This document shows, one piece after another, positions 5,110 to 25,400 of a stretch of DNA of 64,000 bases. Both the position numbers and the translations under genes were made by a program. The stretch is taken from contig CAWGWF010000001.1 of the NCBI GenBank assembly GCA_963826225.1, positions 988,391 through 1,052,390 of the forward strand, in the 5' to 3' direction. The notes under the pieces are model-generated. The model was not told the origin of the DNA and searched no databases. It worked only from the letters and a program-made list of their open reading frames with translations. The stretch is from an uncultured Chloroflexia bacterium (GTDB taxonomy: Bacteria > Chloroflexota > Limnocylindria > Limnocylindrales > CSP1-4). Position 1 is the stretch's first letter. Every line of letters starts with the position of its first letter.

Positions 5110-7394
5110 AGCCGTTCCGACTCCACCGTCCCGAGGAGGGCTGGCTGCCGCCGGCCATGATCCTGGTCATGGTGCTGGTCCTGGCCTGGGCGGTGGACGA
5201 GCCGGGCTGGGTGAACGGCCGTGCGTCGCTGACGGACGGGCTGCCCCTGATCGCCCTGCTCGGGCTCGCGGTCGGGATCCTGGGACCCAAGCTGGGCTGG
5301 AGCCGCTGGACCACGCACCTGGTCGGCGCCGTGTTCGCGGGCATCCTGATCCCGGTGCTCGCCGGTTGGGCCTATCTTCCGGGCAGCTCGATGTCCGAGG
5401 CGTTCACGGCGACGGCCTCCGGGACCGTCAACGCCTACCTGGACATCGCGTGGCGGGGTCGCCGGTTCACCAGCGAGGAGATCCACTACATCCTCGTCCT
5501 GGGGATTCTCCTGTGGGCGACCGCGCAGTTCGCCGCCTACGCCGTGTTCGGCCACCGCCGCCCGTTCAACGCGGTCATCGCGGTCGGGCTGGCGCTGGTC
5601 GCCAACATGGCCCTCACCAGCCGCAACCAGCTGCCGCTCCTGGTGGTGTTCACCGGCGCCTCCCTGTTCCTGCTCATCGGCATGCACGCGTTCGACGAGC
5701 GCACCACCTGGATCCGCCGGCGGATCGGCGATCCGTCCGGCCTGGCCGGCCAATACCTCCGCGGCGGCACCGTGTTCATCGTCGCCGCCCTGGCCGGCTC
5801 GCTCGCGCTCACCACGCGGGCCGCGTCGGACCCGCTCGCGGACGCATGGAAGGGGCTCGACGACCAGCTGATCGAGATCGGCGAGACCGTCGGGCGGCTG
5901 TTCCCGGTGGGCGGCGACCTGCGGGCAGGAGCCGGCGTCAGCTTCGGCACGAGCGCGCAGATCTCCCCGCAGTGGTTCAGCAACCAGGAGGTCGCCTTCG
6001 TCGCGGTGCTGCCCGCCGCGGAGGAGGAGGCCATGAAATGGCGGGTCAGGGCGTACGACCGGTTCGAGCTCGGGGGCTGGGAGCAGACCGACATGCGCGG
6101 CACGGACGTGGAGGCCGAGTTCCCGCTGCTCGCCGGGACGCCCGAGGACCCGTCGACCGACCTGACCCGGGAGGTCACCGTCGACGTTCAGCCGGATGAC
6201 TACGGGCAGCACCTCCTGCTCAGCCCGGGCACCCCCGTGTTCGTCACCCGGGACGCAAGCGTCCGGCTGGGCGGGAATGAGCGCTGGTTCGGCAGCGTGG
6301 AGCTGGACGAGCCGAGGCCCGGCTACCGGGTGACCGCGCGGATCCTCCGGCTCGGCGACGAGGACGTGATCAGCCAGAACCGCCTCGAGGCCGCGTCCGA
6401 GGCCTACCCGCCGGAGATCACCGCCCGGTTCACGGACGTGCCGCCGGGCGCGATCGGCCCGGATGCGACGGCGCTGCTGGCGGAGATGCGGGCGACCGCG
6501 GAATCCGAGGATCCCTACCACCTGGCCAGGGCGTTCGAGACCTTCCTCCAGGACGACCCGCGCTTCCGGTACACGACGGATCTCCGGGATGTCGACTGCC
6601 GGGACCCGAGCGCGGTCGAGTGCTTCGCCCGCACCAACGAGGGCTACTGCCTCCACTACGCGTCCACGATGGCGATCCTGCTGCGGGCGGCGAACCCGGC
6701 CAACCCGATCCCGACCAGGCTCGTCCAGGGATTCCTGCCCGGCAAGCGCGTCGCCGGGCAGGAGACGGTGCGCAACGACGGGGCCCACGCCTGGGTGGAG
6801 GTCTACTTCCCGGGCTACGGCTGGATCCCGTTCGACCCCACCGGCGGCGGGGTGGGGCAGCCATCGGTCATCCAGGAGGGCCCCGAGGTGGCGCCTGCCT
6901 CGCCGACGCCCGCGTCCGCCCCGGGCACGGAGCTGCCCGACCCGACGCGCCGGATCCCGCGGGAGGATGTCGACGGCGGCGCGCTGGGACCCCGGCCCGG
7001 CGGCAGCCCCGGCGACCGGACGCTGCTCATCCTCGCCACCGTTGTCCTCGCGCTGCTGGTCGTCGGGATCGCCCTGGCCGCCCGGCTTCGCGGTCCGCGC
7101 GGCGAGCTGAGCCCCGACGGCGCCTGGCGGACGCTGTCGCGCGGCGCCGGGCGCCTGGGATTCGCGCCGCGACCCACGCAGACGGTGTACGAGTACGCGG
7201 CCACGCTGGGCGAGCTGGTGCCGGTGGCCCGCGACGACCTGCGGGTCGTGGCGGACGCGAAGGTCGAGACCGCCTACGCGCGCGCGGACCTCGCCGGCGA
7301 TCGCCTGCGTGCCGTGGGCGAGGCCACCCGACGCCTCCGGCTGTCGCTGCTGCGGCTGCTGTTCAGGCGCGGCCCGGGGCGCCGGCGCCGATAG
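5106..7394 (+). CDS. Transglutaminase-like membrane protein (TgpA-like)
   Basis: Multiple N-terminal TM helices and a transglutaminase core with the Cys-His-Asp arrangement (GYCLHYAS ... GAHAWVEVYFPGYGWIPFDPTGG). It has a C-terminal TM segment. It overlaps the DUF58 gene stop (ATGA). Confidence 0.85.
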   Translation: MKPFRLHRPEEGWLPPAMILVMVLVLAWAVDEPGWVNGRASLTDGLPLIALLGLAVGILGPKLGWSRWTTHLVGAVFAGILIPVLAGWAYLPGSSMSEAFTATASGTVNAYLDIAWRGRRFTSEEIHYILVLGILLWATAQFAAYAVFGHRRPFNAVIAVGLALVANMALTSRNQLPLLVVFTGASLFLLIGMHAFDERTTWIRRRIGDPSGLAGQYLRGGTVFIVAALAGSLALTTRAASDPLADAWKGLDDQLIEIGETVGRLFPVGGDLRAGAGVSFGTSAQISPQWFSNQEVAFVAVLPAAEEEAMKWRVRAYDRFELGGWEQTDMRGTDVEAEFPLLAGTPEDPSTDLTREVTVDVQPDDYGQHLLLSPGTPVFVTRDASVRLGGNERWFGSVELDEPRPGYRVTARILRLGDEDVISQNRLEAASEAYPPEITARFTDVPPGAIGPDATALLAEMRATAESEDPYHLARAFETFLQDDPRFRYTTDLRDVDCRDPSAVECFARTNEGYCLHYASTMAILLRAANPANPIPTRLVQGFLPGKRVAGQETVRNDGAHAWVEVYFPGYGWIPFDPTGGGVGQPSVIQEGPEVAPASPTPASAPGTELPDPTRRIPREDVDGGALGPRPGGSPGDRTLLILATVVLALLVVGIALAARLRGPRGELSPDGAWRTLSRGAGRLGFAPRPTQTVYEYAATLGELVPVARDDLRVVADAKVETAYARADLAGDRLRAVGEATRRLRLSLLRLLFRRGPGRRRR

Positions 7395-7413: not shown

Positions 7414-8247
7414 TCACATCGCCCCCGACCGCGCGCGCCGCTCCGCCTCCTCCTGCGCCTGCTCGTCGAGCAGCGCGGCCAGGTGCTCGGTGAGGTTGTG
7501 GGCGCGCAGGACTGCCCGGCCGCCGCGGAACTCGACCACCGTGATCCCGCACAACGCGAACGTGAACATCCAGAACCGATCCAGCGGCAGATCGAACAGG
7601 GTGAGCAGGACGATCTTGAACACGCCGTCGTGGCCGACGAGGATCGACCACGGCTGGCCCGCGGCCGGCCCGACGCCCACGTACCCGCCCACCTGGGGTC
7701 GGTCGAGGCTGCCCCGGGGGAAGTCCCGGCCGAGGCGCTCCAGGATCGCGGCCAGGGCCGGCCGGACCCGCGCCCGCACGTCGGCGATTGACTCCCCGCC
7801 GGGCGCCCACGCCTGGTGGGGATGCCGCCGCCAGGCCGCGAGCTCGGCGGGCCAGCGGCGCATGATCTCGTCGTGGGTCTCGCCCTCCCACGCGCCCTGG
7901 CCGATCTCCATGATCCCGGCCTCGGGGCGCACGGCGGATCCATGGTCCATGGCGGCCGCGACGGCCTCCGCCGTCTCCCGCGTCCGGGCGAGGGGGGAGT
8001 GCACGATCTCGAGCGGGAGCCCGATGGGCAGCGGGAGCGCCGGTGGCGCGTGGGGTTCGGCCAGCCGGGCGGCGGCCAGCGCGGCCTGCCGGCGTCCGAC
8101 CGCGGACAGGGGCGTCTCCGCCTGGCCCTGGAAGCGGTTCTCGCGGATCCACTCGGACTCGCCGTGACGCAGCAGGACCAGCGTCGCGTCCAGGCCCTCG
8201 GGGATCAGCGGTGCGACGGTCGGAGCTGCGGCCGCATCGCCCGTCAT
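7414..8247 (-). CDS. Histidine phosphatase family protein (phosphoglycerate-mutase-like)
   Basis: RHGESEWIRENRFQG catalytic motif near the N-terminus. The ATG at 8247 overlaps the serA stop (ATGA). It lies convergent to the transglutaminase gene. Confidence 0.8.
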   Translation of the reverse strand: MTGDAAAAPTVAPLIPEGLDATLVLLRHGESEWIRENRFQGQAETPLSAVGRRQAALAAARLAEPHAPPALPLPIGLPLEIVHSPLARTRETAEAVAAAMDHGSAVRPEAGIMEIGQGAWEGETHDEIMRRWPAELAAWRRHPHQAWAPGGESIADVRARVRPALAAILERLGRDFPRGSLDRPQVGGYVGVGPAAGQPWSILVGHDGVFKIVLLTLFDLPLDRFWMFTFALCGITVVEFRGGRAVLRAHNLTEHLAALLDEQAQEEAERRARSGAM

Positions 8248-9830
8248 CGGTCGCGTCCCAGGCGGATCGTCCAGACGTCGATGACCGCCGCCTCCCGGCG
8301 GATCGCATCCGCAACGGACTCCGGCACATCGTCGTCCAGGGCCAGGACCATGAACGCGTCGGCCCGCGGCGCCGAGCGGGCGAGGGTCATCGCGCTGATG
8401 TTGACGTCCGCCTCGCCCAGGATCTGGCCGATCCGACCCATCGTCCCGGGCTGATCGTGGTGGAGCGTGATGAGCATGCTGTCCGCCGGTGCGAGGTCCA
8501 TCGCGTACTCGTCGAGCCGCACGATCCGGGGCTCGCCGTTGGCGACGGTGCCGGCGACGACCGCCGTTCGCCCGCCGGCCTCCGCCGCGAGCGTGAGCCG
8601 GGCGGCGAACGGTCCCGCGTCGGGTGTCTTGCGCTCCTCCAGCGTGATCCCGCGCGCCTTGGCCAGCGACGCTGCGTTGACCAGGTTGACACGCTCCGTG
8701 ATCGTGGTCTCCAGCAGGCCGCGCACGGCCGCCGCCACCAGCGAGGACGCGTCGTGGGCCGCGGGCTCGCCGGCGATCTCGAGCGTCAGGCGCTGGGGTG
8801 CGGTCCGCAGGAGCTGGGCGACGAATCGACCCAGCGTCTCGGCGAGCGGCAGGAAGGGCGCGATCGCCTGCGCGGTCTCGGGCGTGAGCAGGGGTGCGTT
8901 GACCGCGTGCCGGGCCGGACGCCCGTCGAGGACCGCGATGACCTCTGCCGCGACCTCCTCGGCCACCGCGACCTGCGCCTCCGCGGTGGACGCGCCGAGG
9001 TGCGGCGTGAGCAGCGTGCCGGGTGCGTCCAGCAGCGGGGAGCCGGCCGGCGGCTCCGTCTCGAACACGTCGAACGCCGCGCCGCCGATCCGGCCCTCGC
9101 GCAGGGCGGCGGCCACGGCCGTCTCGTCCAGGATCCCGCCCCGCGCCACGTTGAGCAGCAGCACGCCCGGCTTCATCCGGGCGATCGTGTCGGCATTGAC
9201 CAGGCCTCGGGTCGCACGGGTCATCGGCACGTGGACGCTGATTGCGTCGGAGCGCGCGACGAGGTCGTCGAACGAGACCAGCTCCACGCCCAGGCCGGTC
9301 GCCTGGTCGGCGGTCACGAACGGGTCCGTCCCGATGACCGTCATCTCCATCGCCCGGGCTCGCACGGCGATGGCCTGCCCGATCTTGCCAAGGCCGACGA
9401 TGCCCAGTGTCTTGCCGCGCAGCTCGGTGCCGGTGAACTGCGAGCGCTTCCACTCGCCACGGCGCATGGACGCGTCCGCGGCCGCGATCCGGCGGGCCAG
9501 CCCGTAGAGCAGCGCGAGGGTGTGCTCCGCAGCGGCGATCGTGTTGCCGGTCGGCGCGTTGACGACGGTGATCCCGGCCCGCGTCGCGGCTTCCAGGTCC
9601 ACGTTGTCCACGCCGACGCCGGCGCGGCCGATGACGGCGAGGCGAGTCCCGGCCGAGATCAACCCGGCGTCAACCCTGACCCCGCTGCGCACGATCAGGG
9701 CGTCGTACTCGGGCAGGATCGCGACCATCTCCGCCGGGGAGAGGCCCAGTCGCTCGTCCACCTCGTGGCGCGCGCGCAGCAGCTCCAGGCCCTCGACGGC
9801 AAGGGCCTCGGCAACGAGGATCCGCATCAC
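8244..9830 (-). CDS. serA: D-3-phosphoglycerate dehydrogenase with a C-terminal ACT domain
   Basis: Full-length 528-aa 2-hydroxyacid dehydrogenase with the NAD-binding motif GIVGLGKIGQ, catalytic region and ACT domain. It is typical long-form SerA. Confidence 0.9.
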   Translation of the reverse strand: MMRILVAEALAVEGLELLRARHEVDERLGLSPAEMVAILPEYDALIVRSGVRVDAGLISAGTRLAVIGRAGVGVDNVDLEAATRAGITVVNAPTGNTIAAAEHTLALLYGLARRIAAADASMRRGEWKRSQFTGTELRGKTLGIVGLGKIGQAIAVRARAMEMTVIGTDPFVTADQATGLGVELVSFDDLVARSDAISVHVPMTRATRGLVNADTIARMKPGVLLLNVARGGILDETAVAAALREGRIGGAAFDVFETEPPAGSPLLDAPGTLLTPHLGASTAEAQVAVAEEVAAEVIAVLDGRPARHAVNAPLLTPETAQAIAPFLPLAETLGRFVAQLLRTAPQRLTLEIAGEPAAHDASSLVAAAVRGLLETTITERVNLVNAASLAKARGITLEERKTPDAGPFAARLTLAAEAGGRTAVVAGTVANGEPRIVRLDEYAMDLAPADSMLITLHHDQPGTMGRIGQILGEADVNISAMTLARSAPRADAFMVLALDDDVPESVADAIRREAAVIDVWTIRLGRDR

Positions 9831-10066: not shown

Positions 10067-10711
10067 TCAGCCGCGCTTGACCACCACGGTGGCGGCCTGG
10101 ACGTCGTGGAACCCCTGGCGCTTGGGGCTCTGCGACACGCTGTACAGCAGGTAGAGGGCGTAGCCGATGGCCAGCAGGCCCACCAGGGACCCGAGGACAC
10201 CCAGCACACCCGGCGCGTAGCCGAGGGCCGATCCCAGGGCGAAGGGGCCGAACAGGAAGGCCCAGCGGCGGATCGCCTGGTCGCGGGTGAGCGTGGCACC
10301 GTCTGCTGCGTTGACCGTCTCGAGGCTGAGCATCTTCTGGCCCGGGGACGCGCGCATCGTGGTCCAGAAGTAGACGAAGTAGATCGCGCTGCCCACGAGA
10401 CTGAGCGCCACGAGGAGCACGGTCCCGATCAGCTCGACGACCCCGCCGCCCGCGAAGATGCCCACGACGATGATGCTGCCGAGCACCACGGCCACGATGA
10501 AGAAGATGATGGAGTCGATGATGTACGCGACGATGCGCATCACCAGGTCTGCGTAGGTGACGCCCGGCGCCGGGCCCGCGGCCACCGGCGCCCCGAACCC
10601 GCCGGGCGCCGGCGCCTGGGGCGGGGCCTGCCACCCGGCCTGGACGGGCGGCGGCGCGGGCGCCTCACCCGGATCTCCCGGGGCGGGGGGCCCACCAACA
10701 GGTTCCGTCAT
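10067..10711 (-). CDS. RDD family membrane protein with a Pro-rich N-terminus
   Basis: The C-terminal 150 aa has the RDD architecture (YADLVMRIVAYIIDSIIF ... SPGQKMLSL ... RQGFHDVQAATVVV). I chose the ATG at 10711. The longer ORF that reaches 11221 is low-complexity shadow sequence. Confidence 0.65.
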   Translation of the reverse strand: MTEPVGGPPAPGDPGEAPAPPPVQAGWQAPPQAPAPGGFGAPVAAGPAPGVTYADLVMRIVAYIIDSIIFFIVAVVLGSIIVVGIFAGGGVVELIGTVLLVALSLVGSAIYFVYFWTTMRASPGQKMLSLETVNAADGATLTRDQAIRRWAFLFGPFALGSALGYAPGVLGVLGSLVGLLAIGYALYLLYSVSQSPKRQGFHDVQAATVVVKRG

Positions 10712-10967
10712 CCGAACACCTCCCTCGCCGGCGTCATCCGCGCCGCATTGGCGGAGGATACGACCGACGACTCGCCCCCGGAGGCCTGTTCCGCATTCGC
10801 ACCGTGCGCCGAGGTGGAATGTGAATCGGGAGAGTGAACGGACCCTGCCCCGCACATGAAACGGGACGATGTCGCCGGCCCGGGCGGCGGTGTTCACGAT
10901 CGGCGGTTCCATGTCATCATCTGCTCGCCCATCGGCGTCTCGCCATGCCTCGAGGAGTGAACCACCG

Positions 10968-11282
10968 ATGCGAATCCGCGCAGCGAAGCTCGAGGAGCTC
11001 GTGCCGAAACCGAGAGAGCGCGCCCTGTCACCCCGCCAGCTCGCCGCCCTGCAGCGCGAGGACGAGATCCGCAAGGCGCTGGCCAGGCTCCGATCGGAGG
11101 AGGACGTGATCGCGGTGGAGCTCGATCCGCCGGAGAAGATCCCGACCATGCGCGCGGCGGTGAAGAAGGCGATCGCGGCCCACAAGCCGGGCACCAACAT
11201 GGCGATCCGCGGCCGGACCATCTACCTGTCCACGGGCAAGCTGCCGGGCGGCCGCCGGGGCCGGCGCCCGAAGGCCGGCTGA
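10968..11282 (+). CDS. Hypothetical small basic protein
   Basis: An ATG preceded by GAGGAG (RBS) and GC3-biased codons. There is a K/R-rich C-terminus and no recognised domain. Confidence 0.35.
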   Translation: MRIRAAKLEELVPKPRERALSPRQLAALQREDEIRKALARLRSEEDVIAVELDPPEKIPTMRAAVKKAIAAHKPGTNMAIRGRTIYLSTGKLPGGRRGRRPKAG

Positions 11283-11361: not shown

Positions 11362-12300
11362 ATGACCTCCTCCCGCCCGCATCGCCGCCGCCGCCGGCGG
11401 TACGCCGTCGTCGCGGTGCTGGCCGCCGCGGCGCTGCTCGGGATCCTCGCCCTGTGGTCCAACGTCCTGGGGGTGGGCGACCGTCTGGCCGGTGTCGCCC
11501 ATCGGATCGAGCTGATCGTGGATCCACCGCCGGACCGGCCGATCGAGGCGGAGGTGCGGGTCACGCCGCGGCCGGTCCCCACGCCGGCGGGAACCGTGAC
11601 CCCGGTGCCGTCGCCCACCGGCTCCGCTGATCCAGCGGCGCCTGCGCCCGCGCCGTCCGCGACGCCCAGACCCACGCCGGAGCGCGCGAGCGTGGACGTG
11701 ACGCTGCTGCGTCGTCCCGAGCGCTGGTTCATCAGCCAAACAGACAAGGATTGGTGCGCGGTGGCCGGCACGCAGATGGTGTTGGCGATCCATGGCCGTG
11801 CACCGCTGACCGCCGCCTTCCAGCGGGAGCTGGCGTCCCGGATCGATGAGTGGGAGAGCCGGCGCGACAGCCACAACGGCGGCTGGGGCCCGGCCGCGAT
11901 GGTCGGGGCCCTGGAGGCGCACGGAGTGCACGGCTACGAGGTCCGCGCCTACGACCGACGCTCGGACGCGCTACGTGATGCCGCGGTCGCGATCTCCACC
12001 TATCACGCGCCGGTGATCCTGCTCACCTGGAAAGGGGCGCACACCTGGGTGATGACCGGCTACCGTGCGGACGGCGATCCCACGGTGTTCGACGACGCCC
12101 GCGTCACCGGGACCTACATCCTCGACCCCTGGTACCCGCGCGTGTCCTCGATCTGGGGTCCCTCGGACCCGGCCGGGACGTTCCAGGACGGCGCCGAGAT
12201 GCGCCGCAACTACCTGCCCTGGAAACGACCCGAGGGCAAGTACCCGAGCCGCGACGGCCTGTTCATCGCGGTCATGCCGACGGTACCGCTGGACCGCTGA
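11362..12300 (+). CDS. Membrane-anchored secreted protein with a possible C39-like cysteine-peptidase fold
   Basis: Arg-rich N-terminus plus a TM anchor, then a Pro/Thr/Ala linker. The C-terminal domain has a candidate Cys (DKDWCAVAGTQMV) and His (GAHTWVMTGY). The 3' end overlaps murJ convergently by 29 bp. Confidence 0.55.
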   Translation: MTSSRPHRRRRRRYAVVAVLAAAALLGILALWSNVLGVGDRLAGVAHRIELIVDPPPDRPIEAEVRVTPRPVPTPAGTVTPVPSPTGSADPAAPAPAPSATPRPTPERASVDVTLLRRPERWFISQTDKDWCAVAGTQMVLAIHGRAPLTAAFQRELASRIDEWESRRDSHNGGWGPAAMVGALEAHGVHGYEVRAYDRRSDALRDAAVAISTYHAPVILLTWKGAHTWVMTGYRADGDPTVFDDARVTGTYILDPWYPRVSSIWGPSDPAGTFQDGAEMRRNYLPWKRPEGKYPSRDGLFIAVMPTVPLDR

Positions 12301-13624
12301 CCGGGCTCCGGAGCCGGCGCACGACGGCCCCGACCAGCAGGATCGTCTTGGCGGCGGAGCCCGCCGCGAAGCCCAGCGGGATCGCCAGCACCCCCGCAGG
12401 TTCGACGAGCGCGAGCGTGATCCCGACCGTCACGCCGAAGCCGGCCAGCGAGGCGAGCACGGCCAGGATCGTGTTGTGGGTCGAGTACACGGACCGCGCC
12501 AGCAGGTGGCCGAGCGCCTCGAACGGCACGGACAGCGCGAACGCGGCGAGGATTCCCGCCGTGAGCGCGACGTCGTCGGGGCCGAACTCCCCGCCGCCCA
12601 GCAGGACGTCGATCGCGATCGGCCCCACGATCACGAGGCCGACGGCGGCTGCCACGGTGACGACCGCGATCGTCGTCGCGTTGGTCCTCACGAGGCGCCG
12701 GAAGCCGGCCCGGTCCCCGGTCGCCCAGGCTGCCGAAAGCGCCGGGAACGCCGCCACCGAGATGGCGACGCCGATCAGCGACACGGGCACGCTCTGGAAG
12801 TTGCGCGCGAAGCTGACGGCCGTGACGCTGCCGGCCGCGAGCGTGGTGGCGACCGCGGTGAAGAACAGGAACGTCAGGGGCTCGATCGGATGGGCGAGCA
12901 TCTTGGGCAGCATCAGGCGCCCGAACTCGCGCAGCTCGGGCATCCGCAGGTCCAGGCGGGGCCGCAGCCGGATGGAGGTCCGCCGGATCCCCACCAGGCG
13001 GATGCCCAGGTGCAGCAGCGCGCCCGCGACCGCGCCGACGGCGGCGGCGCGAATGCCGATCGAGTCGTGGAGCAGCACGGTCCCCGCGACGATGCCGGCG
13101 TTGTACAGGATCGGCGCCAGCGCGTAGAACAGGAAGCGACGCTCGGCGACCAGGATCTCGCCCAGCGTGATCGAGGCCGCGAACAGGATCGGCGTGGCGA
13201 GCATCAGCTGGAACAGCTCGAGATACCGGGCCCGCTGGGCGGGATCGAAGCCCGGAGCCACGAGGTCCGCCGTCGCGGGCGCCACCGCGAGCAGCACCAG
13301 GCACGCCGCCGCCATCACGGCGACCGCGAGCGTGAGCACGGTCTGGGCGAACCGGGTGGCCGCGGCGGCATGGTCGCGCCGCAGGGTGCTGAAGATGGGC
13401 ACGAACGGGGCCGTCAGCCCGCTCGCGACCAGCACGTCGAGGGCGAGCTCCGGGAGCACGAACGCGGCGTTGTAGGCGTCCAGCTCCGCGCCCGCCCCGT
13501 ACGTCCGCGCGAACACGCGGTCGCGGACGAGGCCCATCGCGTAGCTGGCGAAGGTCAGCACCGACAGCAGCACCGCGCCCTGGGGCAGGAAGCGCGCGAC
13601 GAGCGACCGGCTGTAGCTGACCAC
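12272..13624 (-). CDS. murJ: Lipid II flippase MurJ/MviN
   Basis: A 14-TM MOP-superfamily profile (MGLVRDRVFARTYGAG ... LMLPKML). The GTG start at 13624 is preceded by GGAGGAG. Confidence 0.8.
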   Translation of the reverse strand: MVSYSRSLVARFLPQGAVLLSVLTFASYAMGLVRDRVFARTYGAGAELDAYNAAFVLPELALDVLVASGLTAPFVPIFSTLRRDHAAAATRFAQTVLTLAVAVMAAACLVLLAVAPATADLVAPGFDPAQRARYLELFQLMLATPILFAASITLGEILVAERRFLFYALAPILYNAGIVAGTVLLHDSIGIRAAAVGAVAGALLHLGIRLVGIRRTSIRLRPRLDLRMPELREFGRLMLPKMLAHPIEPLTFLFFTAVATTLAAGSVTAVSFARNFQSVPVSLIGVAISVAAFPALSAAWATGDRAGFRRLVRTNATTIAVVTVAAAVGLVIVGPIAIDVLLGGGEFGPDDVALTAGILAAFALSVPFEALGHLLARSVYSTHNTILAVLASLAGFGVTVGITLALVEPAGVLAIPLGFAAGSAAKTILLVGAVVRRLRSPVSGPAVPSA

Positions 13625-13641
13625 GTGCTCCTCCGGGGGCG

Positions 13642-13740
13642 GGTTCGGCGCGGCTGTGACGCGCGGTGCCCGCCGGGTGGGACGGTACCGGGTCGGGCGA
13701 CCGTTGGCGACGGAACCGGGCCCGCATCCTGCGCGGTCCC
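13642..13740 (+). repeat. Copy A of a roughly 100-nt direct-repeat element
   Basis: The core ttcggcgcggctgtgacgcgcggtgcccgccgggtgggacggtaccgg ... gggcccgcatcctgcgcgg aligns at about 85-90% identity with copy B at 17941-18047. It lies in the divergent intergenic region between murJ and the repeat-protein gene. Confidence 0.7.
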
Positions 13741-14032
13741 CGGTCCTGCCCTCGGGTCGTTGACCCGTCGCACCGGCAAACGTCACCGACGCACGGGGGC
13801 GACGTCACCGCAGGCACCCCCGGCCACCTCGACCGCACATCGCACCGTGACCAACGTCCGGGGGTCGCCCGGGACCCCGCCCGGTGCGCGCACCGCACGG
13901 GGCGGTGCACCCGGGAACATGGTCCCATCGTGCGGCTGGTACGAGCGCCCGGACAGCCCGACTCTGGCGGTGCGTACCGGGGGGACGCCACGTCGGCCGG
14001 AGCCGGCGCGCCACCACCGCCGGGGGTTGAAG

Positions 14033-15421
14033 ATGCACAGGGCCACGCTCCACAGGGGACCGATCGCGATCTCGCTCGCGCTGGCGGCTGCCATCTCGGT
14101 GGGCGTCTGGCCGACGGCCCCGTCGACCGCGATCGCGGCGCCGGGCGATCCGATCCTGGACGTCGAGCTCGACGTCGCGAGCGTCGTCGTGGGTGCCACG
14201 GTCCAGCTCACCGCGACGATCCACGGTGCAGACGGGAGCCTGCTGACGGGTCCGTCGACAAACACCCAGGTCCGCTTCGACTTCCTCCCGGGCAGCGCAA
14301 ACGCGCCCGTTGGTGGGGGCGGGGCGGACATGCGGTGCCACACCGGCCTGGTCGGCACCTGCACCGTGAGCTACGTGGCGGCCGCCGTCGGCACGGACGT
14401 CATCTGCGCGAGGACGACGAACGGCAGCGACACGTGCTTGGAGGATGTCGCCGCCCCCGAACGGGTCGATGCCTTCGACACCGTGCAGCGGACGGTCGTG
14501 GCCGCCGACCCGACGCCCGCACCCGACGCCGACCCGACGCCCGCACCCGACGCCGACCCGACGCCCGCACCCGACGCCGACCCGACGCCCGCGCCCGACG
14601 CCGACCCGACGCCCGCGCCCGACGCCGACCCGACGCCCGCGCCCGACGCCGACCCGACGCCCGCGCCCGACGCCGACCCGACGCCCGCGCCCGACGCCGA
14701 CCCGACGCCCGCGCCCGACGCCGACCCGACGCCCGCGCCCGACGCCGACCCGACGCCCGCGCCCGACGCCGACCCGACGCCCGCGCCCGACGCCGACCCG
14801 ACGCCCGCGCCCGACGCCGACCCGACGCCCGCGCCCGACGCCGACCCGACGCCCGCGCCCGACGCCGACCCGACGCCCGCGCCCGACGCCGACCCGACGC
14901 CCGCGCCCGACGCCGACCCGACGCCCGCGCCCGACGCCGACCCGACGCCCGCGCCCGACGCCGACCCGACGCCCGCGCCCGACGCCGACCCGACGCCCGC
15001 GCCCGACGCCGACCCGACGCCCGCGCCCGACGCCGACCCGACGCCCGCACCCGACGGCAGCCAGGACCCGAAGACGGCCCTGGTGCTCCCCGTTGGCGAG
15101 GGCGGGCCCTCCGGTCCGCGCAGCTCCGGCGATGGCCCGGCCGGGCCGCGCAGCGACAGCATGGTTGGTCCGGCACCGGGGCTGCAGCCCGATGGGCCCT
15201 CCTCCGCCCTGGGCATCGCGCTCGAGGGCGCGGCGCGGCTCTTCCGGCCGGAGGTTGCGGCGACCGTCGCCACGGTCTTCGGGTTCCCGATCCTCCTTGC
15301 GCTGCTCGTCCTGCTGTTCCTGCTCGTGCAGTCCCGGGTTGACCACCGGGACCCGAAGCTCCGGGCAGCGCCGCTGACGCTGGCCGACACGCTCGTCCCG
15401 TTCGCGGATGACGCACCGTGA
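14033..15421 (+). CDS. Secreted, membrane-anchored surface protein with 23 tandem DPTPAPDA octapeptide repeats
   Basis: Signal peptide (ISLALAAAISVGVWP...AIAAP) followed by an N-terminal domain of about 120 aa. Then 23 copies of DPTPAPDA, a Gly/Pro/Ser-rich segment, and a C-terminal TM helix (VFGFPILLALLVLLFLLV) with a short tail. The stop overlaps the start of the downstream GGDEF-EAL gene (ATGA). Confidence 0.75.
   Translation: MHRATLHRGPIAISLALAAAISVGVWPTAPSTAIAAPGDPILDVELDVASVVVGATVQLTATIHGADGSLLTGPSTNTQVRFDFLPGSANAPVGGGGADMRCHTGLVGTCTVSYVAAAVGTDVICARTTNGSDTCLEDVAAPERVDAFDTVQRTVVAADPTPAPDADPTPAPDADPTPAPDADPTPAPDADPTPAPDADPTPAPDADPTPAPDADPTPAPDADPTPAPDADPTPAPDADPTPAPDADPTPAPDADPTPAPDADPTPAPDADPTPAPDADPTPAPDADPTPAPDADPTPAPDADPTPAPDADPTPAPDADPTPAPDADPTPAPDADPTPAPDGSQDPKTALVLPVGEGGPSGPRSSGDGPAGPRSDSMVGPAPGLQPDGPSSALGIALEGAARLFRPEVAATVATVFGFPILLALLVLLFLLVQSRVDHRDPKLRAAPLTLADTLVPFADDAP
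14507..15058 (+). repeat. Tandem repeat, 23 copies of a 24-bp unit (gacccgacgcccgcgcccgacgcc), inside the CDS
   Basis: Direct inspection: the 19 internal copies are 100% identical. The first three copies and the last copy differ at a single synonymous position (gca instead of gcg). The last copy ends in ggc. Confidence 0.95.
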
Positions 15422-17916
15422 CGGCGGATCGGGCGAGGACCGACTACGCGATCCTCGGTGACCGGCTTCGCTACCTCCTGGGCCTGCGGTTCGCGCTTGC
15501 CGCCGTCACCATCGGCCTCGGGCTGGCGAGCCCCGCGACGCTCGGCGTTCCACTCCCGTCGCTGGTCACGACGGCGATCGCCTACCTGGGCCTGGCCCTC
15601 GCAATGGAATGGGTCGGCTGGCGATGGCCGAAGGCCACGTTCGCCACGATGACGGTCATGCTCCTGGTCGACGGGCTGTTCCTCGCCGCCACGATGTACG
15701 CGACGGGCGGAAGCGGGAGCCCGATGCGCTTCCTTGTCTACCTCCATCTCGTCGCCGTGACCCTGCTCGCCTCGTACCGGACGGGGCTCAAGATCGCACT
15801 CTGGCACTCGCTCCTGCTGTTCGTCGTGCTGTACGCACAGGCGGCGGCCCTGCTGCCGCCTGTGGAAGTGCTGCCAGGCCGGGCTATCGAGCTCCAGGGC
15901 ACGCCGGCCCTCAACGTCACGGCCTTCTGGCTGTTCGCCCTGGCGACGGCGGTGTTCTCGGCGCTCAACGAACGCGAGCTCCGCCAGCGACGCACCGACT
16001 TGGAGACGCTCGTCGCCGTTGGCTCGCGACTCGACGATGAGGGCGATCCGATCCACCAGGCGCAGATCGTCCTGGAGGCGCTTGCCGAGCGCTACGGCTT
16101 TGTCCGTGGCGTCGTCCTCGGCGCATCCGACGACCGGCTGCTCGCCCTGGGCTCGTTCGGCATGCCATTCACGCAGCATGGGCAGCCGCTGCCCGTGGAC
16201 CCGATCGTGGAGCGAGTGTGGGCGACGCGTGCCCCGCTGGCCGTGCGACGGCTGAACGCGGACCGCGACCCGGTCGTGGCAGGGCTGCTGCCCGAGGCGA
16301 GGAACGTCATCGTCGCGCCGATGTTCGCCGATGGCCGACCGGTGGGCGCCGTCATCCTCGAGCGGCCCGGCCGGGCAGTGGCCGGGATCGAGCGCCGGAT
16401 CATGAGCGTCGTCGCCCAGCTCGCGTCGATCGCGGCGCTGAACCTGCGCAACGCCGTGCTGCTCAAGCGGGTCCAGGACCTGGCCGAGCGAGACTCACTC
16501 ACGGGCGCCGCGAACCGGTATTCGTTCCAGGCCAGCCTCAAGCGCGTGCTCGACGATGGCCAGGAGCCGGACCGGATCTCGGCGGTCCTGTTCATCGATC
16601 TCGACGACTTCAAGATCGTCAACGACAGCCTCGGTCACGCGGCAGGCGACGAGCTCCTGGTGGCGGTGACGCGGCGCATCTCGTCGCTCGTCCGTGACGA
16701 CGACCTCGTGGCCCGGTTGGGGGGCGACGAGTTCGCCGTCCTGACGCACGACCAGCCAGACCTGCGGCGCTCGCGCGCGATGGCCGAGCGCCTGGTGCGC
16801 GACCTCCGCGCGCCGTACCTGGTGGCCGGTCAGCCGGTGTCCATCTCGGCCAGCATCGGCATCGCCGGCGCCCGGGACGCGATCGACGGTGCCGGCGACA
16901 TGGTCCGCAATGCAGACGTCGCGATGTACATGGCAAAGGCCGGCGGCAAGGCAGGCTTCGCCATCTTCGATCCAGGCATGCACCAGGCGATCCGGGAGCG
17001 GCACGAGCTGGCGCTGGAGCTCAAGCAGGCGGTCGACCTCCAGCAGTTGGTCCTTCGCTACCAGCCCATCATCGACCTCGCCACCAACCGCCTGGCAGGC
17101 GTCGAGGCGCTCGTTCGCTGGCGGCACCCCGAGCGCGGGCTCATCCCGCCCGGCCAGTTCATCGAGATCGCCGAGGAGGCTGGCTCGATCCTGCCGATCG
17201 GCCGCTGGGTGCTCCGCGAGGCCTGCCGCCAGGCGGCGGCATGGGGGGCGCAGGCCTCGACCCCGGCGGACATGTTCGTCGGCGTCAACGTATCGGCCCG
17301 TGAAGTCCAGGAGCAGGGGTTCATCGAGGGTGTCCGGGAGGCGCTGTCCGATCACGGCGTCGCCGCGTCGCGGCTGGTCATCGAGATCACCGAGACAGCC
17401 CTGCTGCGGGCGACGCCGACGACGGTCGAGACGCTCCAGGACCTGCGTGACCTGGGGGTGCGGGTGGTCATCGACGACTTCGGCACCGGGTACTTCTCGC
17501 TGAGCCACCTTCGCCAGTTCCCTGTCGACGCCCTGAAGATCGCGGGCGAGTTCACGCAGGAAGGCGAGTCGGAGACCGCGACCCGCTCGTCTGCGCTGGC
17601 GGCGGCGATCGTCGCGATGGCCCGATCGCTGGGCATCGACACCGTGGCTGAGGGTATCGAGACGCCGGCCCAGGCCGAGCGGATGCGATCGCTCCGCTGC
17701 ACCTACGGCCAGGGGTTCCACTTCGCCCATCCGATGCTGGCCGACGAGATTCCGGCTGCGGCACGGGGCGTCGAGGCGGCCCTGGCGGAGGCGGCCGCGG
17801 AGGCCGAGGTGATGGCCGAGATGGAGGCCGGGCGCGCCACGACCCCGCGTTCGCGTCGCCGCGCGTCGGCACGGCGGACTGGGCAGCCCGCGGCCACGCG
17901 AGCGGCACCCGCCTGA
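15418..17916 (+). CDS. Membrane-bound GAF-GGDEF-EAL protein (c-di-GMP cyclase/phosphodiesterase)
   Basis: Six predicted N-terminal TM helices and a GAF-like region. The GGDEF motif (RLGGDEFAV) and the EAL motif (EALVRW ... DDFGTGYSS-like) are both intact. Confidence 0.9.
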   Translation: MTADRARTDYAILGDRLRYLLGLRFALAAVTIGLGLASPATLGVPLPSLVTTAIAYLGLALAMEWVGWRWPKATFATMTVMLLVDGLFLAATMYATGGSGSPMRFLVYLHLVAVTLLASYRTGLKIALWHSLLLFVVLYAQAAALLPPVEVLPGRAIELQGTPALNVTAFWLFALATAVFSALNERELRQRRTDLETLVAVGSRLDDEGDPIHQAQIVLEALAERYGFVRGVVLGASDDRLLALGSFGMPFTQHGQPLPVDPIVERVWATRAPLAVRRLNADRDPVVAGLLPEARNVIVAPMFADGRPVGAVILERPGRAVAGIERRIMSVVAQLASIAALNLRNAVLLKRVQDLAERDSLTGAANRYSFQASLKRVLDDGQEPDRISAVLFIDLDDFKIVNDSLGHAAGDELLVAVTRRISSLVRDDDLVARLGGDEFAVLTHDQPDLRRSRAMAERLVRDLRAPYLVAGQPVSISASIGIAGARDAIDGAGDMVRNADVAMYMAKAGGKAGFAIFDPGMHQAIRERHELALELKQAVDLQQLVLRYQPIIDLATNRLAGVEALVRWRHPERGLIPPGQFIEIAEEAGSILPIGRWVLREACRQAAAWGAQASTPADMFVGVNVSAREVQEQGFIEGVREALSDHGVAASRLVIEITETALLRATPTTVETLQDLRDLGVRVVIDDFGTGYFSLSHLRQFPVDALKIAGEFTQEGESETATRSSALAAAIVAMARSLGIDTVAEGIETPAQAERMRSLRCTYGQGFHFAHPMLADEIPAAARGVEAALAEAAAEAEVMAEMEAGRATTPRSRRRASARRTGQPAATRAAPA

Positions 17917-17940
17917 CAGTCAGCAGTCGGCGTCTCACCG

Positions 17941-18047
17941 GTTTCGGCGCGCCTGTGACGCGCGGTGCCCCCGAGTGGGCCGGTACCGGCCCTGGTGGGC
18001 CGGGCGTGACGTGAAGGGGCCCCGCATCCGGCGGATGCGGGGCCCGG
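17941..18047 (+). repeat. Copy B of the roughly 100-nt direct-repeat element, ending in a GC-rich hairpin
   Basis: It contains ttcggcgcgcctgtgacgcgcggtgcccccgagtgggccggtaccgg and ends with the palindrome gggccccgcatccggcggatgcggggccc (18017-18045). It is in the same orientation as copy A and lies between the convergent genes. Confidence 0.7.
18017..18045. terminator. Bidirectional intrinsic terminator-like hairpin
   Basis: A near-perfect 13-14 bp GC-rich palindrome between the convergent stop codons at 17916 and 18069. There is no strong U-tract, which is usual for high-GC actinobacteria. Confidence 0.5.
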
Positions 18048-18068
18048 GTGGGTCGAGGTGGGGGATCG

Positions 18069-19598
18069 CTACTGGGTGACTGGGGCGTGATCGGGGTCGG
18101 GCGAAGGTTCGAGCGTGCCGGGCTTGAAGTTGCCCTTGCCCTTGACGCCGTTGACGTCGGAGGTGTTCTGCGCGTACTGGAGCGTCGCATAGGCGACGGC
18201 ATCGGAGTTCACGTCGAGCGCCGAGAGGTTGATGTTGTCGAAGGTGTCGCAGGCTAGGTGGTAGCAGGGGTCGTACTGGTCGCCCGCGGTACCGCCCCAC
18301 ATGGCGGCCTCGTCGGGCGTCTTGATCCCCTCGGCGCCGGTGAACAGCCCGCCGGCGGGGATGCCGACCGCGATGAACGGGCCGTAGTCGGACCGGCCGC
18401 TGAAGTCGGTGCCCTTGAAGGGGATCCCGCGCTGAGCGTAGAAGCGCTCGAAGGTCTTCTCGATCTCGGCCGAGCCCGCGGGTCCCGGACCGGCGCCGGC
18501 CCCGTCGCTGTCATCGCCGTCGTAGACGAAGAAGACATGGTTCGGCGAGCCGATCATGTCGAAGTTGAGGTAGAGCGTGATCCTGTCCACCTCCTCCGGG
18601 CTGAGATTGTTGACGTAGTGGGTCGATCCGACCAGGCCCGACTCCTCGGCACCCCAGAGGGCGAAGCGGACCTTGTTCCGTGGGTTGGCCTTGCTCATCT
18701 GCTGAGCCACCTCGAGGATCGCAGCCGAGCCCGAGCCGTTGTCCTGGATCCCCGGGCCGGCGTTGACGGAATCGAGATGGGCGCCGACCACGACCACGTT
18801 GTCCGGGTCGCCGCCGGGAGTCTCTGCGAGGACGTTGGAGGTGGTCGCGATGCCGCGGAAGGTCTCGGTCTTGAGGCGCATGATGAGGCCCGGGGTCGCC
18901 GCCAGCTGCTGGCCGACCGCCTGGGTCACCGACGTCACCGGGATGTTCAGCGTGAAGCCGTTGCCGAGTGTGCCGTTGAGCACTCCCGCGGCATTGTTGT
19001 AGATGACCACGCCCGAGGCGCCCGCGTTGTAGGCGTTGGTCGCCTTGATCGCGAAGGTGCAGGTGCCCCGGCTGATGAGCGCGATGTTCCCGGCCGGGAA
19101 GCCGGCGAAGTCGGCCGCGTTGCAGCCCCGGAAGTCGCTCACGGTGCTGACGGCTGCCGTGACGTCGCCGCTGCCCGAGTAGCTGAAGATGTTGTTCGTG
19201 ATCGGCCCGGCCGGCGGCGGCGAGACCTGCTCCAGGATCGACGGCGCGAGCGAGATGAACGTCTGGAACTGGAACTCCTGGACGGTCACGTCGTAGCCGG
19301 CGGCACGGAACACCGCTTCGGCATAGTCCGCAGACTGGTCGTAGCCGGGCGAGCCCGACACCCGAATGCCGTTGTTCGCGTCGGCGATCGTCTGGAGCGC
19401 GGCCTGGTGCTCGCGGACGCCCTCGAGCGTCACGCACTCGAGCAACTTCTTGAAGTTGTCGTTGGTCCGCGTGTCGCAGGCGGGGTCACCCGCCGACACG
19501 AGCGCCGCGGGGACGACGACGACCGCGGGCGCGGCCAGCACGAACGCCACGAGGATGCCGATCCTGCCGAGCCGTCGCCGGCCGGGATTGGTGCGCAT
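18069..19598 (-). CDS. Secreted M28-family aminopeptidase with an inserted PA domain (SGAP-like)
   Basis: Signal peptide, PA domain, M28 zinc ligands (HLDSV, DNGSG, EESG, FDM) and a C-terminal HLACDT motif. The ATG at 19598 is preceded by GGAGGAGGGG. Confidence 0.85.
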   Translation of the reverse strand: MRTNPGRRRLGRIGILVAFVLAAPAVVVVPAALVSAGDPACDTRTNDNFKKLLECVTLEGVREHQAALQTIADANNGIRVSGSPGYDQSADYAEAVFRAAGYDVTVQEFQFQTFISLAPSILEQVSPPPAGPITNNIFSYSGSGDVTAAVSTVSDFRGCNAADFAGFPAGNIALISRGTCTFAIKATNAYNAGASGVVIYNNAAGVLNGTLGNGFTLNIPVTSVTQAVGQQLAATPGLIMRLKTETFRGIATTSNVLAETPGGDPDNVVVVGAHLDSVNAGPGIQDNGSGSAAILEVAQQMSKANPRNKVRFALWGAEESGLVGSTHYVNNLSPEEVDRITLYLNFDMIGSPNHVFFVYDGDDSDGAGAGPGPAGSAEIEKTFERFYAQRGIPFKGTDFSGRSDYGPFIAVGIPAGGLFTGAEGIKTPDEAAMWGGTAGDQYDPCYHLACDTFDNINLSALDVNSDAVAYATLQYAQNTSDVNGVKGKGNFKPGTLEPSPDPDHAPVTQ

Positions 19599-22453: not shown

Positions 22454-25400
22454 ATGCCCCCTATCGAGCGTCCCACGCGACCCGCTCCCCCTGTACGTCC
22501 GGCGCCCGCTGCGGGCGCCCGCCCCGTGAAACGCCGTTCTCCACGGGGTGACCCGGCCCAGCTGGTGCAGATCCCGGTCTGGGGCCAGGTGGAGGTGACC
22601 GCGGACGAGCCGGAGCCCGAGTCCGGGCTCGAGAGCCTTCTCGCCGGGTTGAACCCGGAGCAGAAGCGCGCAGTGACGCACGGCGACGGGCCGCTGCTGG
22701 TCGTGGCCGGCGCGGGCACGGGCAAGACCCAGGTCATCACGCGGCGGATCGCGTGGCTCATCGCCACCCGCCGAGCCCGTCCCGCGGAGATCCTCGCCCT
22801 GACCTTCACGGACCAGGCGGCGGACGAGATGCAGGTCCGGGTGGACCAGATGGTCCCGTACGGGTATACGGACACGGCGATCTCCACGTTCCACGCGTTC
22901 GGTGACCGGCTGATCCGGGAGTTCGCCCTGGAGCTCGGGCTGCCGACGGACGTCCGCGTCCTGTCGCGGCCGGAGACCGTCGTGTTCATGCGGGAGCGCC
23001 TGTTCGAGCTCGGGCTGGACGAGTACCGGCCACTGGGGGACCCCACCCGGTTCCTGGACGCGCTGGCCACGCTGTTCTCGCGGGCCAAGGACGAGGACGT
23101 GTCGCCGGACGCCTTCCTTGCCCACGCGGACCGGTTGGGCGCCGGCGCACTGGAGGCCGCACGCACGCTCGAGGCGGCCGGAGGGGACGCCCTCGAGGCG
23201 GACCGGAGCGCCGCGGCGGCGCTGGACGAGGACGCGCGCCGGACCCGCGAGCTGGCCCGGGCCTACGGCCGCTACCAGGCGCTCCTCGCCTCCGTCGGAG
23301 CGGTCGACTTCGGGGACCAGGTCGCCCTCGCGCTGCGCCTGCTGCGCGAGTCGCCGGCCGCGCGGGACGTCGTTCAGCGCCGGTTCCGGTATGTCCTGGT
23401 GGACGAGTTCCAGGACACGAATCGCGCCCAGGCGGAGCTGGTCGCGCTGGTCGCGCAACGGCACCGGAACGTGACGGTGGTCGGGGACGACGACCAGTCG
23501 ATCTACAAGTTCCGCGGCGCCGCGATCAGCAACATCCTGGAGTTCCGGGAGCGGTACCGGCATGCGAAGGTCGTCGTCCTGCGGCGCAACTACCGCTCGC
23601 GCGGCCCGATCCTGGACGCGGCCTACCGGCTGGTGCGCCACAACGACCCGGACCGCCTGGAGGTGCGGGCGGGCATCGTGAAGCGCCTGGTCGCGGAGCG
23701 CGGGAGCGAAGGGGCTCCGGCCGTGCGCCACGAGGCATTCGCGACCGGTGCAGAGGAGGCGGACTGGATCGCCGCGGACATCGCGCGGCGCGTGCGGGAC
23801 GGGGCGGCGCCGCGAGATATGGCGATCCTGGTCCGGGCGAACGCCACCGCGGACCCCGTCATGCGCTCGCTCAACCTGGAGGGAATCCCCTGGCGGTTCT
23901 CGGGGACCTCCGGCCTGTACGCCCGGCCGGAGGTCAAGCTGCTCCTCGCCTTCCTGCGCGCGATCGCGGACCTCGAGTCGTCGGTGGACGTGTACGCCCT
24001 GGCCGCGTCGGAGCTGTACCGGCTGGGCGGCGAGGACCTGGTCGCGATCGTGAACATGGCGCGCCGCCGGAACCGGTCGGTGTTCGAGATCCTCGACGAG
24101 CTTGGCCGCCAGCCCGGGATCCTGCGCCTCTCGCCGGAGACGCGAGCCTCGGCGGCCGTGCTGGTGGCGGACCTGCGGCAGTACGCCGCCCTGGGCCACG
24201 AGCGGCCGGCCGGCGAGGTCATGTATGCGTTCCTCAAGGGGACCGGCTGGCTGGGACGCCTCGCCGGCGCCGAGTCGGTCGCGGCGGAGGAGGCGCTGTC
24301 CAACATCGCGCGTTTCTTCGACATCGTCCGGGCGCAGTCCGCCCTGCTCGCGGACGACCGTGCGGTGTTCGTGGCACGTCACCTCCAGACGCTGATCGCC
24401 GCGGGGGACGACCCGCCGACCGCGGATATCGACCCGGACGCCGACGCCGTCGCCGTGATGACCGTGCACAAGGCGAAGGGCCTCGAGTTCCCGATCGTCT
24501 ACCTGCCCGGGCTCGTCACCGGCCGCTTTCCGGCCGTCGGGCGGCGGGAGCCGCTGGCCCTGCCGATCGAGCTGGTCAACGAGACGCTGCCGGAGGGTGA
24601 CTACCAGCTCCAGGAGGAGCGCCGGCTGTTCTACGTGGGCATGACCCGGGCGCGGGACGAGCTCGTGCTGTCGCACGCGGCGGACTACGGCGGCCAGCGG
24701 GCGCGTCGCGTGTCGCCGTTCGTGCTGGAGGCGCTGGACCTGCCGGTGGCCGCCGGCGCGGCGGGGGCCGGCGCGAAGCCGGTCTCGCCGCTGGAGCGCC
24801 TGGGAGGGCTGGACCGGACGGAGCCGTCGCCGGCCGCCGTCCGGGTGCGCGGGGACGAGCCGCTGATGCTCTCGTTCTACGCGATCGACGACTACCTGAC
24901 GTGCCCGCTCAAGTACAAGTACGCCCATCTGCTGCGCGTGCCGCTGGCGCCCCACCACTCGATCATCTACGGCTCCGCGCTCCATGCCGCCGTGTCCGAG
25001 TTCCATCGTCGCCACGCGCGCGGCGACGTGATGACCGAGGACGACCTGTATGCGTCGTTCCTGGGTGCCTGGACCAACGAGGGGTTTCTGTCGCGGGAGC
25101 ATGAGGAGGCGCGCCTGGCCGCGGGCCGCGAGGCGCTGCGTCGCTTCCGGGACGCGCAGCTCGCGCCCGGTGCGGTCGTGCCCGCGTACGTGGAGCGGGA
25201 GTTCAGCTTCCTGCTGGACGGGGATCGCGTCCGGGGGCGCTTCGATCGGGTCGACATCGTGCCACGCGATGCCGAGGGACCGGGGACGGCGCCAAGTGAG
25301 GGACCGGCGCCGGTCGCGGACGTCGTGGAACCCACCCTGGAGCTTTCGCCGGAGCTGGTGACGATCACGGACTACAAGTCCTCGGACGTGCGTGACCCCG

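Follow-up and report, generated by a model that had tools for sequence, protein, structure and literature searches.

The stretch of DNA analysed here (the window; 64,000 nucleotides, positions 988,391 to 1,052,390 of contig CAWGWF010000001.1 from an uncultured Chloroflexia bacterium) carries two overlapping forward-strand genes, here called A and B, whose products we propose to form a two-part sensor of the cell surface or envelope that feeds into cyclic di-guanosine monophosphate (c-di-GMP) signalling. Gene A (14033..15421) encodes a 462-residue type I single-pass surface protein, recognised from its open reading frame and translation and from the same layout in homologues: a signal peptide, an immunoglobulin (Ig)-like domain, a repeat stalk, a spacer and a conserved membrane module. 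Gene B (15418..17916), delimited by its open reading frame and by Pfam and NCBIfam matches, encodes an 832-residue protein in which six transmembrane helices precede GAF, GGDEF and EAL domains. The tandem array within the stalk of A would be a recently expanded, length-variable spacer, and we assign this reading as a whole a probability of about 0.6. The observations underlying it are the anatomy of the two proteins, the conserved pairing and overlap of their genes, intact catalytic motifs in B, a variable ectodomain and stalk in A, and the fold relationships of both. A two-part receptor is the simplest reading: B has no domain outside the membrane, A conserves a membrane helix with its flanking motifs and freely exchanges its ectodomain, and the two genes are expressed together from an overlapping junction.

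The initial annotation, made from the letters of the window, had suggested that a stalked surface protein and a c-di-GMP turnover enzyme are co-expressed as one module, and the synteny of the two genes elsewhere, which it had asked to be searched for, strongly supports this. A word-indexed search of 5.8 billion proteins returned four relatives of A besides A itself; a profile of the Ig-like domain added a dozen more, and an exhaustive profile search yielded several dozen cluster representatives with the same layout, some of them with two to four Ig-like domains ahead of the same stalk and C-terminal module. The profile built from alignment A3 included the stalk and drew many low-complexity Pro/Thr matches, and only those covering the Ig-like domain or the module were used. 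Scanning one genome per species gave 16 loci, all in metagenome-assembled genomes of Chloroflexota and some labelled Candidatus Limnocylindrales, a lineage to which the window probably belongs as well. A B homologue with all four parts recognisable follows A in every one of the 14 Chloroflexota genome loci that have downstream DNA, and a B homologue also follows A in three further metagenome contigs. A metagenome scan seeded only with the module of A found 46 loci, with a B homologue next in 40. In two of the six exceptions the contig stops (L028, L048), and in two more a second A comes before the contig end (L022, L024); the others are one weak match where B is present nevertheless (L066) and one rearranged contig in which B still begins (L046).

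The pairing was also approached from the other side. Five distant B homologues were chosen independently through a search with the membrane domain of B, at least two of them from assemblies labelled Actinomycetota or Actinobacteria. Upstream of four lies a gene that carries the same module at its end; at L067, the fifth locus, frameshifts in the upstream genes leave no readable module. Their A-type proteins are diverse. The one from an Actinomycetota-labelled assembly (L069, region 1-5789) exceeds 1,666 residues and contains NHL and Big_13 domains, and that from an Actinobacteria-labelled assembly (L071, 2199-3807) has 293 residues with only a disordered Thr/Gly/Asp-rich repeat outside the membrane, each being followed by a 6TM_PilS-type gene; the remaining two are an Ig-plus-Pro/Thr protein (L070) and a fragment (L068). 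Altogether, wherever a related locus extends far enough downstream, the module of A is followed by a B homologue: in 14 Chloroflexota genomes, in about 43 metagenome contigs and in the five more distant loci. The pair is thus known from about 60 uncultured soil bacteria, and no gene pair other than A-B is conserved in the 25 long loci compared. Nothing on such a pairing was found in the literature searched.

Several individual loci depart from the simple order. One contig (L023, 489-6203) holds two tandem A genes and then one B, the first A with two Ig-like domains and the second with one, and each with its own module. Another (L004, 1300-2025) encodes an Ig-like domain with a Pro/Thr tail and no module, followed by a gene on the opposite strand that is not B, and could be either a true secreted paralogue or a chimeric contig. 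Four proteins (P0005-P0008) had been considered as anchorless Ig-plus-Pro/Thr forms; at least P0006 (locus L019) has been cut short by a frameshift, and the module and B still lie downstream of it.

The junction of the two genes is as distinctive as their order. It had been described as an ATGA in which the stop of A overlaps the start of B; the overlap stands, and the sequence reads GTGA (15418..15421, forward strand), with the GTG start of B at 15418 and the TGA stop of A at 15419-15421. Among 52 distinct junctions, 35 read GTGA, 12 ATGA and one TTGA (48 of the form NTGA), and in the other four B starts 1-3 nt after the stop. The overlapping start is supported because the first residues of B (MTADR.RTDYA.LGDRLRYLL) are conserved and no other in-frame start lies nearby. 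An ATG at 15408 was rejected as a start of B, being in the third frame and opening an open reading frame of only 17 codons. A GGAG, GAGG or AGGA core lies 4-18 nt upstream of the B start, within the last codons of A, in 49 of the 52 junctions. Across this set GAGGAG-like codons specify the conserved acidic tail of A (F-E-x-E-D/E) and double as the ribosome-binding site of B, and the tail may therefore be under constraint both as protein and as RNA. In the window itself (15390-15421) the Shine-Dalgarno core has been lost (GCGGATGAC). Upstream, the region between A and the MurJ gene (13787..14032, no strand assigned; MurJ at 12272-13786, reverse strand) presumably contains the promoter, as the gene map suggests; a sigma-70 promoter and terminator consensus scan of 13600-18200 returned no sites and is uninformative at 73% G+C (72.9% for the window).

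Protein A bears out the earlier claim of a signal peptide and a transmembrane anchor, its hydropathy profile showing a signal-like segment at residues 11-29, followed by AIA/AP, and one strong C-terminal helix at residues 414-432. The signal peptide is placed at residues 1-36 (14033..14140) with likely cleavage at AIA/AP, and the position of the hydrophobic N-terminal segment is conserved across relatives. The domain that follows (residues 37-158, 14141..14506), which the initial annotation could not identify, is by its structure a bacterial Ig-like domain of the intimin/invasin type; it superimposes on intimin and invasin domains as an Ig-like β-sandwich, and Foldseek agrees. Four cysteines (102, 110, 125 and 135) are kept in relatives, which fits a location outside the cytoplasm. 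A profile search of the PDB gave weak filamin-repeat matches only, and A matched no Pfam family at E ≤ 0.01 and so has no Big_1 (PF02369) match, which is precomputed in one distant relative only (P0014). Neither the whole of A nor its C-terminal part matched any Pfam or NCBIfam family, and an LPXTG motif is absent. In NCBIfam, SdrD scores 14.6 bits (cut-off 2,500) and SdrC 13.5 bits (cut-off 1,700); both scores are negligible and fall to the Ser-Asp repeat regions of those models. Between the repeats and the module lies a non-repetitive spacer rich in Gly, Pro and Ser (residues 343-391, 15059..15205), delimited by translation and composition and variable across relatives.

The part of A that does not vary is its C-terminal module (residues 392-462, 15206..15418; alignment A4). 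It consists of an RPE..AA.VA segment, the motif FGFP (416-419), the transmembrane helix (414-432), Q433, the motif DHRDPKLR (437-444), AP and an acidic tail. The residues that never vary in the alignment are F, P, L, Q, D, D, P, L and F. No relative of the module was found in Pfam, in NCBIfam or by a profile search of the PDB. The Chloroflexota versions and those labelled Actinomycetota or Actinobacteria share it on unrelated ectodomains, ranging from one to several Ig-like domains, through the giant NHL and Big_13 protein of more than 1,666 residues, to the disordered Thr/Gly/Asp-rich region alone. This invariance far exceeds the need of a passive anchor. The module also provides a simple sequence handle (F-x-F-P, helix, Q, D-x-R-D-P-K-L) with which more such pairs could be found.

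The same contrast between a fixed module and a changeable exterior bears on the most serious competitor, in which A is a surface adhesin or a structural protein of the envelope that shares an operon with B, either as an output whose display or function is governed by the c-di-GMP that B makes or degrades (as LapA is for LapD) or as a co-regulated product that never touches B. The resemblance of its Ig-like domain to intimin, invasin and FdeC, a stalk-plus-head layout typical of adhesins with weak SdrC and SdrD matches in the repeat region, and the giant multi-domain surface proteins among the family members would all suit such a role. We nevertheless regard it as unlikely: the ectodomain is dispensable or replaceable, one member having only a disordered region, and conservation falls instead on the membrane module and on the 4-nt overlap. 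The invariant F-x-F-P...Q..D..DP.L motif would be superfluous in the anchor of an adhesin, and no other output gene is conserved nearby.

Gene B supplies the enzymatic half of the proposed sensor. Its six-helix membrane domain (residues 1-200, 15418..16017) has short outside loops and is of the PilS-like or cyclase-anchor type. It is followed by a GAF domain (residues 212-339, 16051..16434; GAF at 29.1 bits against a cut-off of 22.4, GAF_2 at 29.7 against 28.6), a GGDEF domain (residues 357-511, 16486..16950; PF00990 at 135.7 bits against 23.8, E 1.6e-39) and an EAL domain (residues 534-772, 17017..17733; PF00563 at 244.3 bits against 31.3, E 1.4e-72). A motif scan located DLDDFK at residues 394-399 and RDDD-LVARL-GGDEF at residues 426-439 (nt 16693-16734), with the RxxD inhibitory site (I-site) five residues upstream of GGDEF, and EALVR, EITE, DDFGTG, EGIE and GQG in the EAL domain. 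The description of B as a six-helix GAF-GGDEF-EAL protein with both catalytic motifs intact was thus upheld by the Pfam domains, by all motifs and by a six-helix structural model. Both the cyclase and the phosphodiesterase activity are probably retained in the family, because the GGDEF, I-site and EAL-domain motifs are kept in all complete members except one damaged by a frameshift.

The predicted structure of residues 1-200 of B consists of six helices (predicted local distance difference test score, pLDDT, 88.9; predicted template modelling score, pTM, 0.82), in agreement with hydropathy, and the positive N-terminus together with the cytoplasmic catalytic domains suggests that both ends of the bundle face the cytoplasm. 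Helices 4-5 and the loop SYRTGLK are nearly invariant, and helices 3-5 contain the conserved polar residues D85, S101, H110, R121 and K125, with H110 replaced by D or Q in some members. The Pfam family 6TM_PilS (PF25323) is matched by 20 of 21 family members at E ≤ 0.1 (best 7.5e-8), and several database relatives of B carry a precomputed match. In fold, the bundle most resembles the membrane anchors of adenylyl cyclases and ImcA of Pseudomonas aeruginosa, the latter being the closest bacterial match. A PDB sequence search with a profile of the membrane domain found nothing.

These features also speak to the idea that the module of A is a sorting or processing signal in the style of PEP-CTERM or GlyGly-CTERM, with the bundle of B as its dedicated processing or anchoring enzyme. 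The module does have a tripartite look (FGFP, then the helix, then R..D.RDPKLR), and helices 3-5 of B do contain the conserved polar residues named above. Yet the bundle matches cyclase anchors and ImcA, with no rhomboid or sortase-like fold among its top 60 fold matches, and H110 is not retained throughout; about 20 more conserved residues follow the basic cluster of the module, unlike known sorting signals, and there is one A, occasionally two, per B rather than many substrates per enzyme. NCBIfam, which also covers C-terminal sorting signals and has models for some surface-anchoring families, matched nothing. We consider this explanation highly improbable.

The repeat array of A (14507..15058, forward strand, residues 159-342) consists of 23 units of 24 bp, 552 bp in all, set in the codon register. 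Tandem Repeats Finder places it at 14503-15056 (period 24, 23.1 copies, 99% matches, no indels, score 1080), and it is the sole strong tandem array in the window. Direct reading of the units reproduced the 552-bp length, the 24-bp unit and the 19 units reported as identical at the nucleotide level (GACCCGACGCCCGCGCCCGACGCC). Units 1-3 differ by GCA instead of GCG, and unit 23 has GCA and a terminal GGC. At the protein level the count of 23 units holds, and their reported identity does not: there are 22 DPTPAPDA and one DPTPAPDG. The net charge of the array is -46, and its residues include 69 Pro, 46 Asp, 45 Ala and 23 Thr. In itself, such an array is ordinary for the stalk of a surface protein.

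A proline-rich stalk of roughly 170-340 residues is present in every intact family member, and its sequence is not conserved. The comparison of copy number across related genomes, proposed together with the idea of recent expansion and length variation, showed that the repeat unit, the copy number and the stalk length all differ between relatives. Arrays with a 24-bp period and other units occur in L003 (10.2 copies, 98%), L015 (10 copies, 92%) and L011 (11.7 copies, 85%); they arose separately, and the array of the window is the longest and most perfect among the family arrays compared. Two near-identical strains, L002 and L005, agree at 470 of 470 positions in their Ig-domain DNA and to 99.3% in their B genes; in the stalk, identity of the DNA drops to 90%, and one in-frame indel of 72 bp (3 x 24) separates them. 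Recent expansion and length variation of the array are thereby supported indirectly, and these sequence comparisons support its description as a probably fast-evolving, length-variable region. Slippage would change the length of the stalk and not expression, because the 24-bp unit is a multiple of three. The array accordingly lacks the hallmark of a phase-variable on/off contingency locus, since its unit lies inside the coding region and copy changes keep the frame.

Arrays of this kind are prone to assembly problems, and it might be asked whether the 23 copies are partly an artefact of collapse or expansion, which would make both the copy number and the claim of homogenisation unreliable. A typical short read, at about 150 bp, falls well short of the 552 bp covered by near-identical units. 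In relatives, contigs built from short reads are frequently interrupted in the stalk: many loci begin 100-600 nt ahead of the module, and two contigs (L018, L020) end there. Among 14 long-read genome assemblies, eight have frameshifts inside the stalk. In the window, on the other side, the array is exactly in frame and shows edge variants around a homogeneous core, the usual pattern of real arrays; the 2.69-Mb source contig suggests long-read assembly, the total stalk length lies within the family range, and relatives hold independent arrays of 10-12 copies with other units. An artefact of this sort seems improbable to us, and the presence and in-frame structure of the array are not in doubt. 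The eight frameshifted stalks (L007, L009, L012, L014-L017 and L019, at about 8350-9300 of each locus) are accompanied by an intact Ig-like domain, module and B; they are probably sequencing errors in C-rich runs, and may alternatively reflect real frame-switching.

From these features we infer physical contact between A and B, the direction of signalling and the nature of the signal, and suggest the following mechanism. Protein A would be exported and anchored by its single C-terminal helix, with the N-terminus outside and a 30-residue tail inside, displaying its intimin-like Ig domain atop a proline-rich acidic stalk of about 255 residues, 184 of them contributed by the array. If extended, the whole stalk could measure tens of nanometres and would then be long enough to traverse a cell wall; the bacteria that contain these pairs are widely regarded as single-membrane organisms. 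Protein B, a six-helix protein almost unexposed outside, could both make and degrade c-di-GMP through its cytoplasmic GAF, GGDEF (with I-site) and EAL domains, and A would supply the outside sensing part that B lacks. The helix of A and its juxtamembrane FGFP...Q..DHRDPKLR segment may dock onto the six-helix bundle, such that events at the surface or wall (ligand binding, contact or strain on the stalk) would pass sideways in the membrane and shift the balance of synthesis and hydrolysis in B. The array would act as a spacer and not as a recognition element, having expanded recently by duplication of units, and its length could change in frame without switching the gene off.

A number of points weigh against this mechanism. 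Co-transcription in a strict ratio is equally compatible with a structural complex without a sensing role, or with A as the target of B and not its input. The Ig-like fold is generic and offers no clue to a ligand, and the relatives are all uncultured and hence without a phenotype. Against 6TM_PilS, the B protein of the window reaches 20.8 bits at full length and 25 bits when residues 1-200 are taken alone, below the cut-off of 27, and the window belongs to the three junctions of 52 that have no clear Shine-Dalgarno core. The stalk frameshifts mark the region as error-prone, and the number of 23 copies should be read as assembled.

Control by a membrane partner has a precedent in P. aeruginosa, where ImcA is inhibited by a separate membrane sensor, IsmP (PA2072 / PA1851; PMC10904736). 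The contact between the two needs both membrane regions, and point mutations in the IsmP helix abolish the interaction (PMC10904736). IsmP differs from A in being a large CHASE4-PAS-GGDEF-EAL protein encoded elsewhere in the genome, whereas A is a single-pass, stalked Ig-like protein encoded immediately upstream of its partner with a 4-nt overlap and unrelated to IsmP in sequence; B has GAF and EAL domains beyond those of ImcA, and the signal that IsmP senses is iron. Similarly, PilS contacts the bitopic pilin PilA directly through its six membrane segments (PMC6058289), and a 17-residue pilin helix in Caulobacter signals to c-di-GMP synthesis (PilA to PleC/PleD; PMC7196804). The family of B matches 6TM_PilS in its membrane domain, the window protein itself scoring below the cut-off, but PilS has a histidine kinase as its output in place of GGDEF-EAL. 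Pilins, for their part, have an N-terminal helix of opposite orientation behind a prepilin signal, whereas A shows none of the features of a type IV pilin, its N-terminus being a Sec-type signal with an AxA site and its conserved helix C-terminal. The adenylyl cyclase anchors that B resembles (human AC5 and AC9; Mycobacterium tuberculosis Rv1625c) share only 9-11% identity with it and serve class III cyclases rather than GGDEF/EAL enzymes. Such anchors have been proposed as receptors, which remains debated.

For the outer part of A, the nearest parallels are functional. RsgI of Bacillus subtilis detects wall gaps with a disordered region that stays functional after its sequence has been scrambled (PMC9732909). 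RsgI proteins of B. subtilis and clostridia are likewise single-pass with a long, sequence-independent disordered extracytoplasmic region, as the stalk of A is free in sequence and always present; they differ in their opposite orientation, in regulated proteolysis leading to a sigma factor, and in having neither a c-di-GMP link nor homology to A. Neither an N-terminal anti-sigma domain nor a juxtamembrane autoproteolytic domain of the RsgI type was found in A with Pfam or NCBIfam. The yeast proteins Wsc1 and Mid2 are single-pass, wall-spanning sensors with a Pro/Thr/Ser-rich region comparable to the stalk of A, and in some wall sensors of these kinds the region is tipped by a folded binding head, but Wsc1 signals to Rho1, without a c-di-GMP link and without homology to A. 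The Ser-Asp repeats and Pro-Thr linkers of SdrC, SdrD and ClfA are short acidic or proline-rich tandem stalks of variable copy number that project a binding domain; compared with SdrC and SdrD, A lacks an LPXTG motif, and its anchor is a membrane helix whose partner is an enzyme. Its head differs from the Big_1 domains of intimin and invasin in the missing Pfam match, in the four conserved cysteines and in standing alone on a stalk instead of in a tandem rod.

On these grounds we rate the pair as a probable case of a membrane c-di-GMP enzyme of the partner-controlled kind. The enzyme domains, the Ig-like fold and repeat stalks are of kinds already known; judged against Pfam, NCBIfam, the PDB and the literature, what appear to be undescribed are the module, its obligate, translationally coupled pairing with a GAF-GGDEF-EAL protein that has a six-helix domain of the cyclase type, and the spread of this pairing over Chloroflexota and over assemblies labelled Actinomycetota or Actinobacteria. 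A bolder and decidedly tentative extension would be that these pairs represent a previously unrecognised class of two-part surface receptors in Chloroflexota and apparently Actinomycetota, in which a wall-spanning stalk of tunable length with an interchangeable head is a mechanical or wall-state probe of contact, wall thickness or gaps, and signals solely through the membrane-helix module to the six-helix bundle, so as to switch a bifunctional enzyme from making c-di-GMP to breaking it or back. If this were true, changes of stalk length by repeat slippage would retune the reach of the sensor.

The inputs of most GGDEF/EAL enzymes are unknown, and the membrane domains of many expose nothing outside the cell. 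For one such family, an input part in the form of a separate, translationally coupled single-pass protein, recognised by its conserved membrane module, is an answer that can be tested. The module could also serve to study how one helix might govern a six-helix anchor of the cyclase type, a matter that concerns the membrane adenylyl cyclases too. The family also offers a natural series of stalk lengths and heads for the study of wall-spanning sensing.

The surroundings of the pair in the window are less conserved. The MurJ lipid II flippase gene is divergent from A and is met at its 3' end by a converging gene for a C39-like peptidase homologue (11362-12300, forward strand) with its own Pro/Thr/Ala-rich linker, the two overlapping by 29 nt. 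The trio of C39-like, MurJ and A genes, together with an RDD-family gene (10067-11221), recurs only in the closest relatives (L001, L006-L008, L055). Further upstream, at 3892-7394 (forward strand), a DUF58 gene is followed by a gene for a transglutaminase-like/DUF4129 membrane protein, their stop and start overlapping, and ARAGORN predicts a 93-nt tRNA-Arg(GCG) at 7599-7691 (reverse strand) that is missing from the Rfam tRNA matches above the gathering score; the two tools agree only on the tRNA-Met at 45402-45476. Downstream, at 22454-26571 (forward strand), the gene for a UvrD-type helicase fused to a PD-(D/E)XK nuclease (1,076 residues) shares a 4-nt overlap with an N6/N4 DNA methylase gene. 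Two short imperfect repeats at 47787-47912 (forward strand; units of 24 and 21 bp, about 2.3 copies each) encode a Pro/Glu/Ser-rich N-terminal stretch of an M20 peptidase gene (47763-49361).

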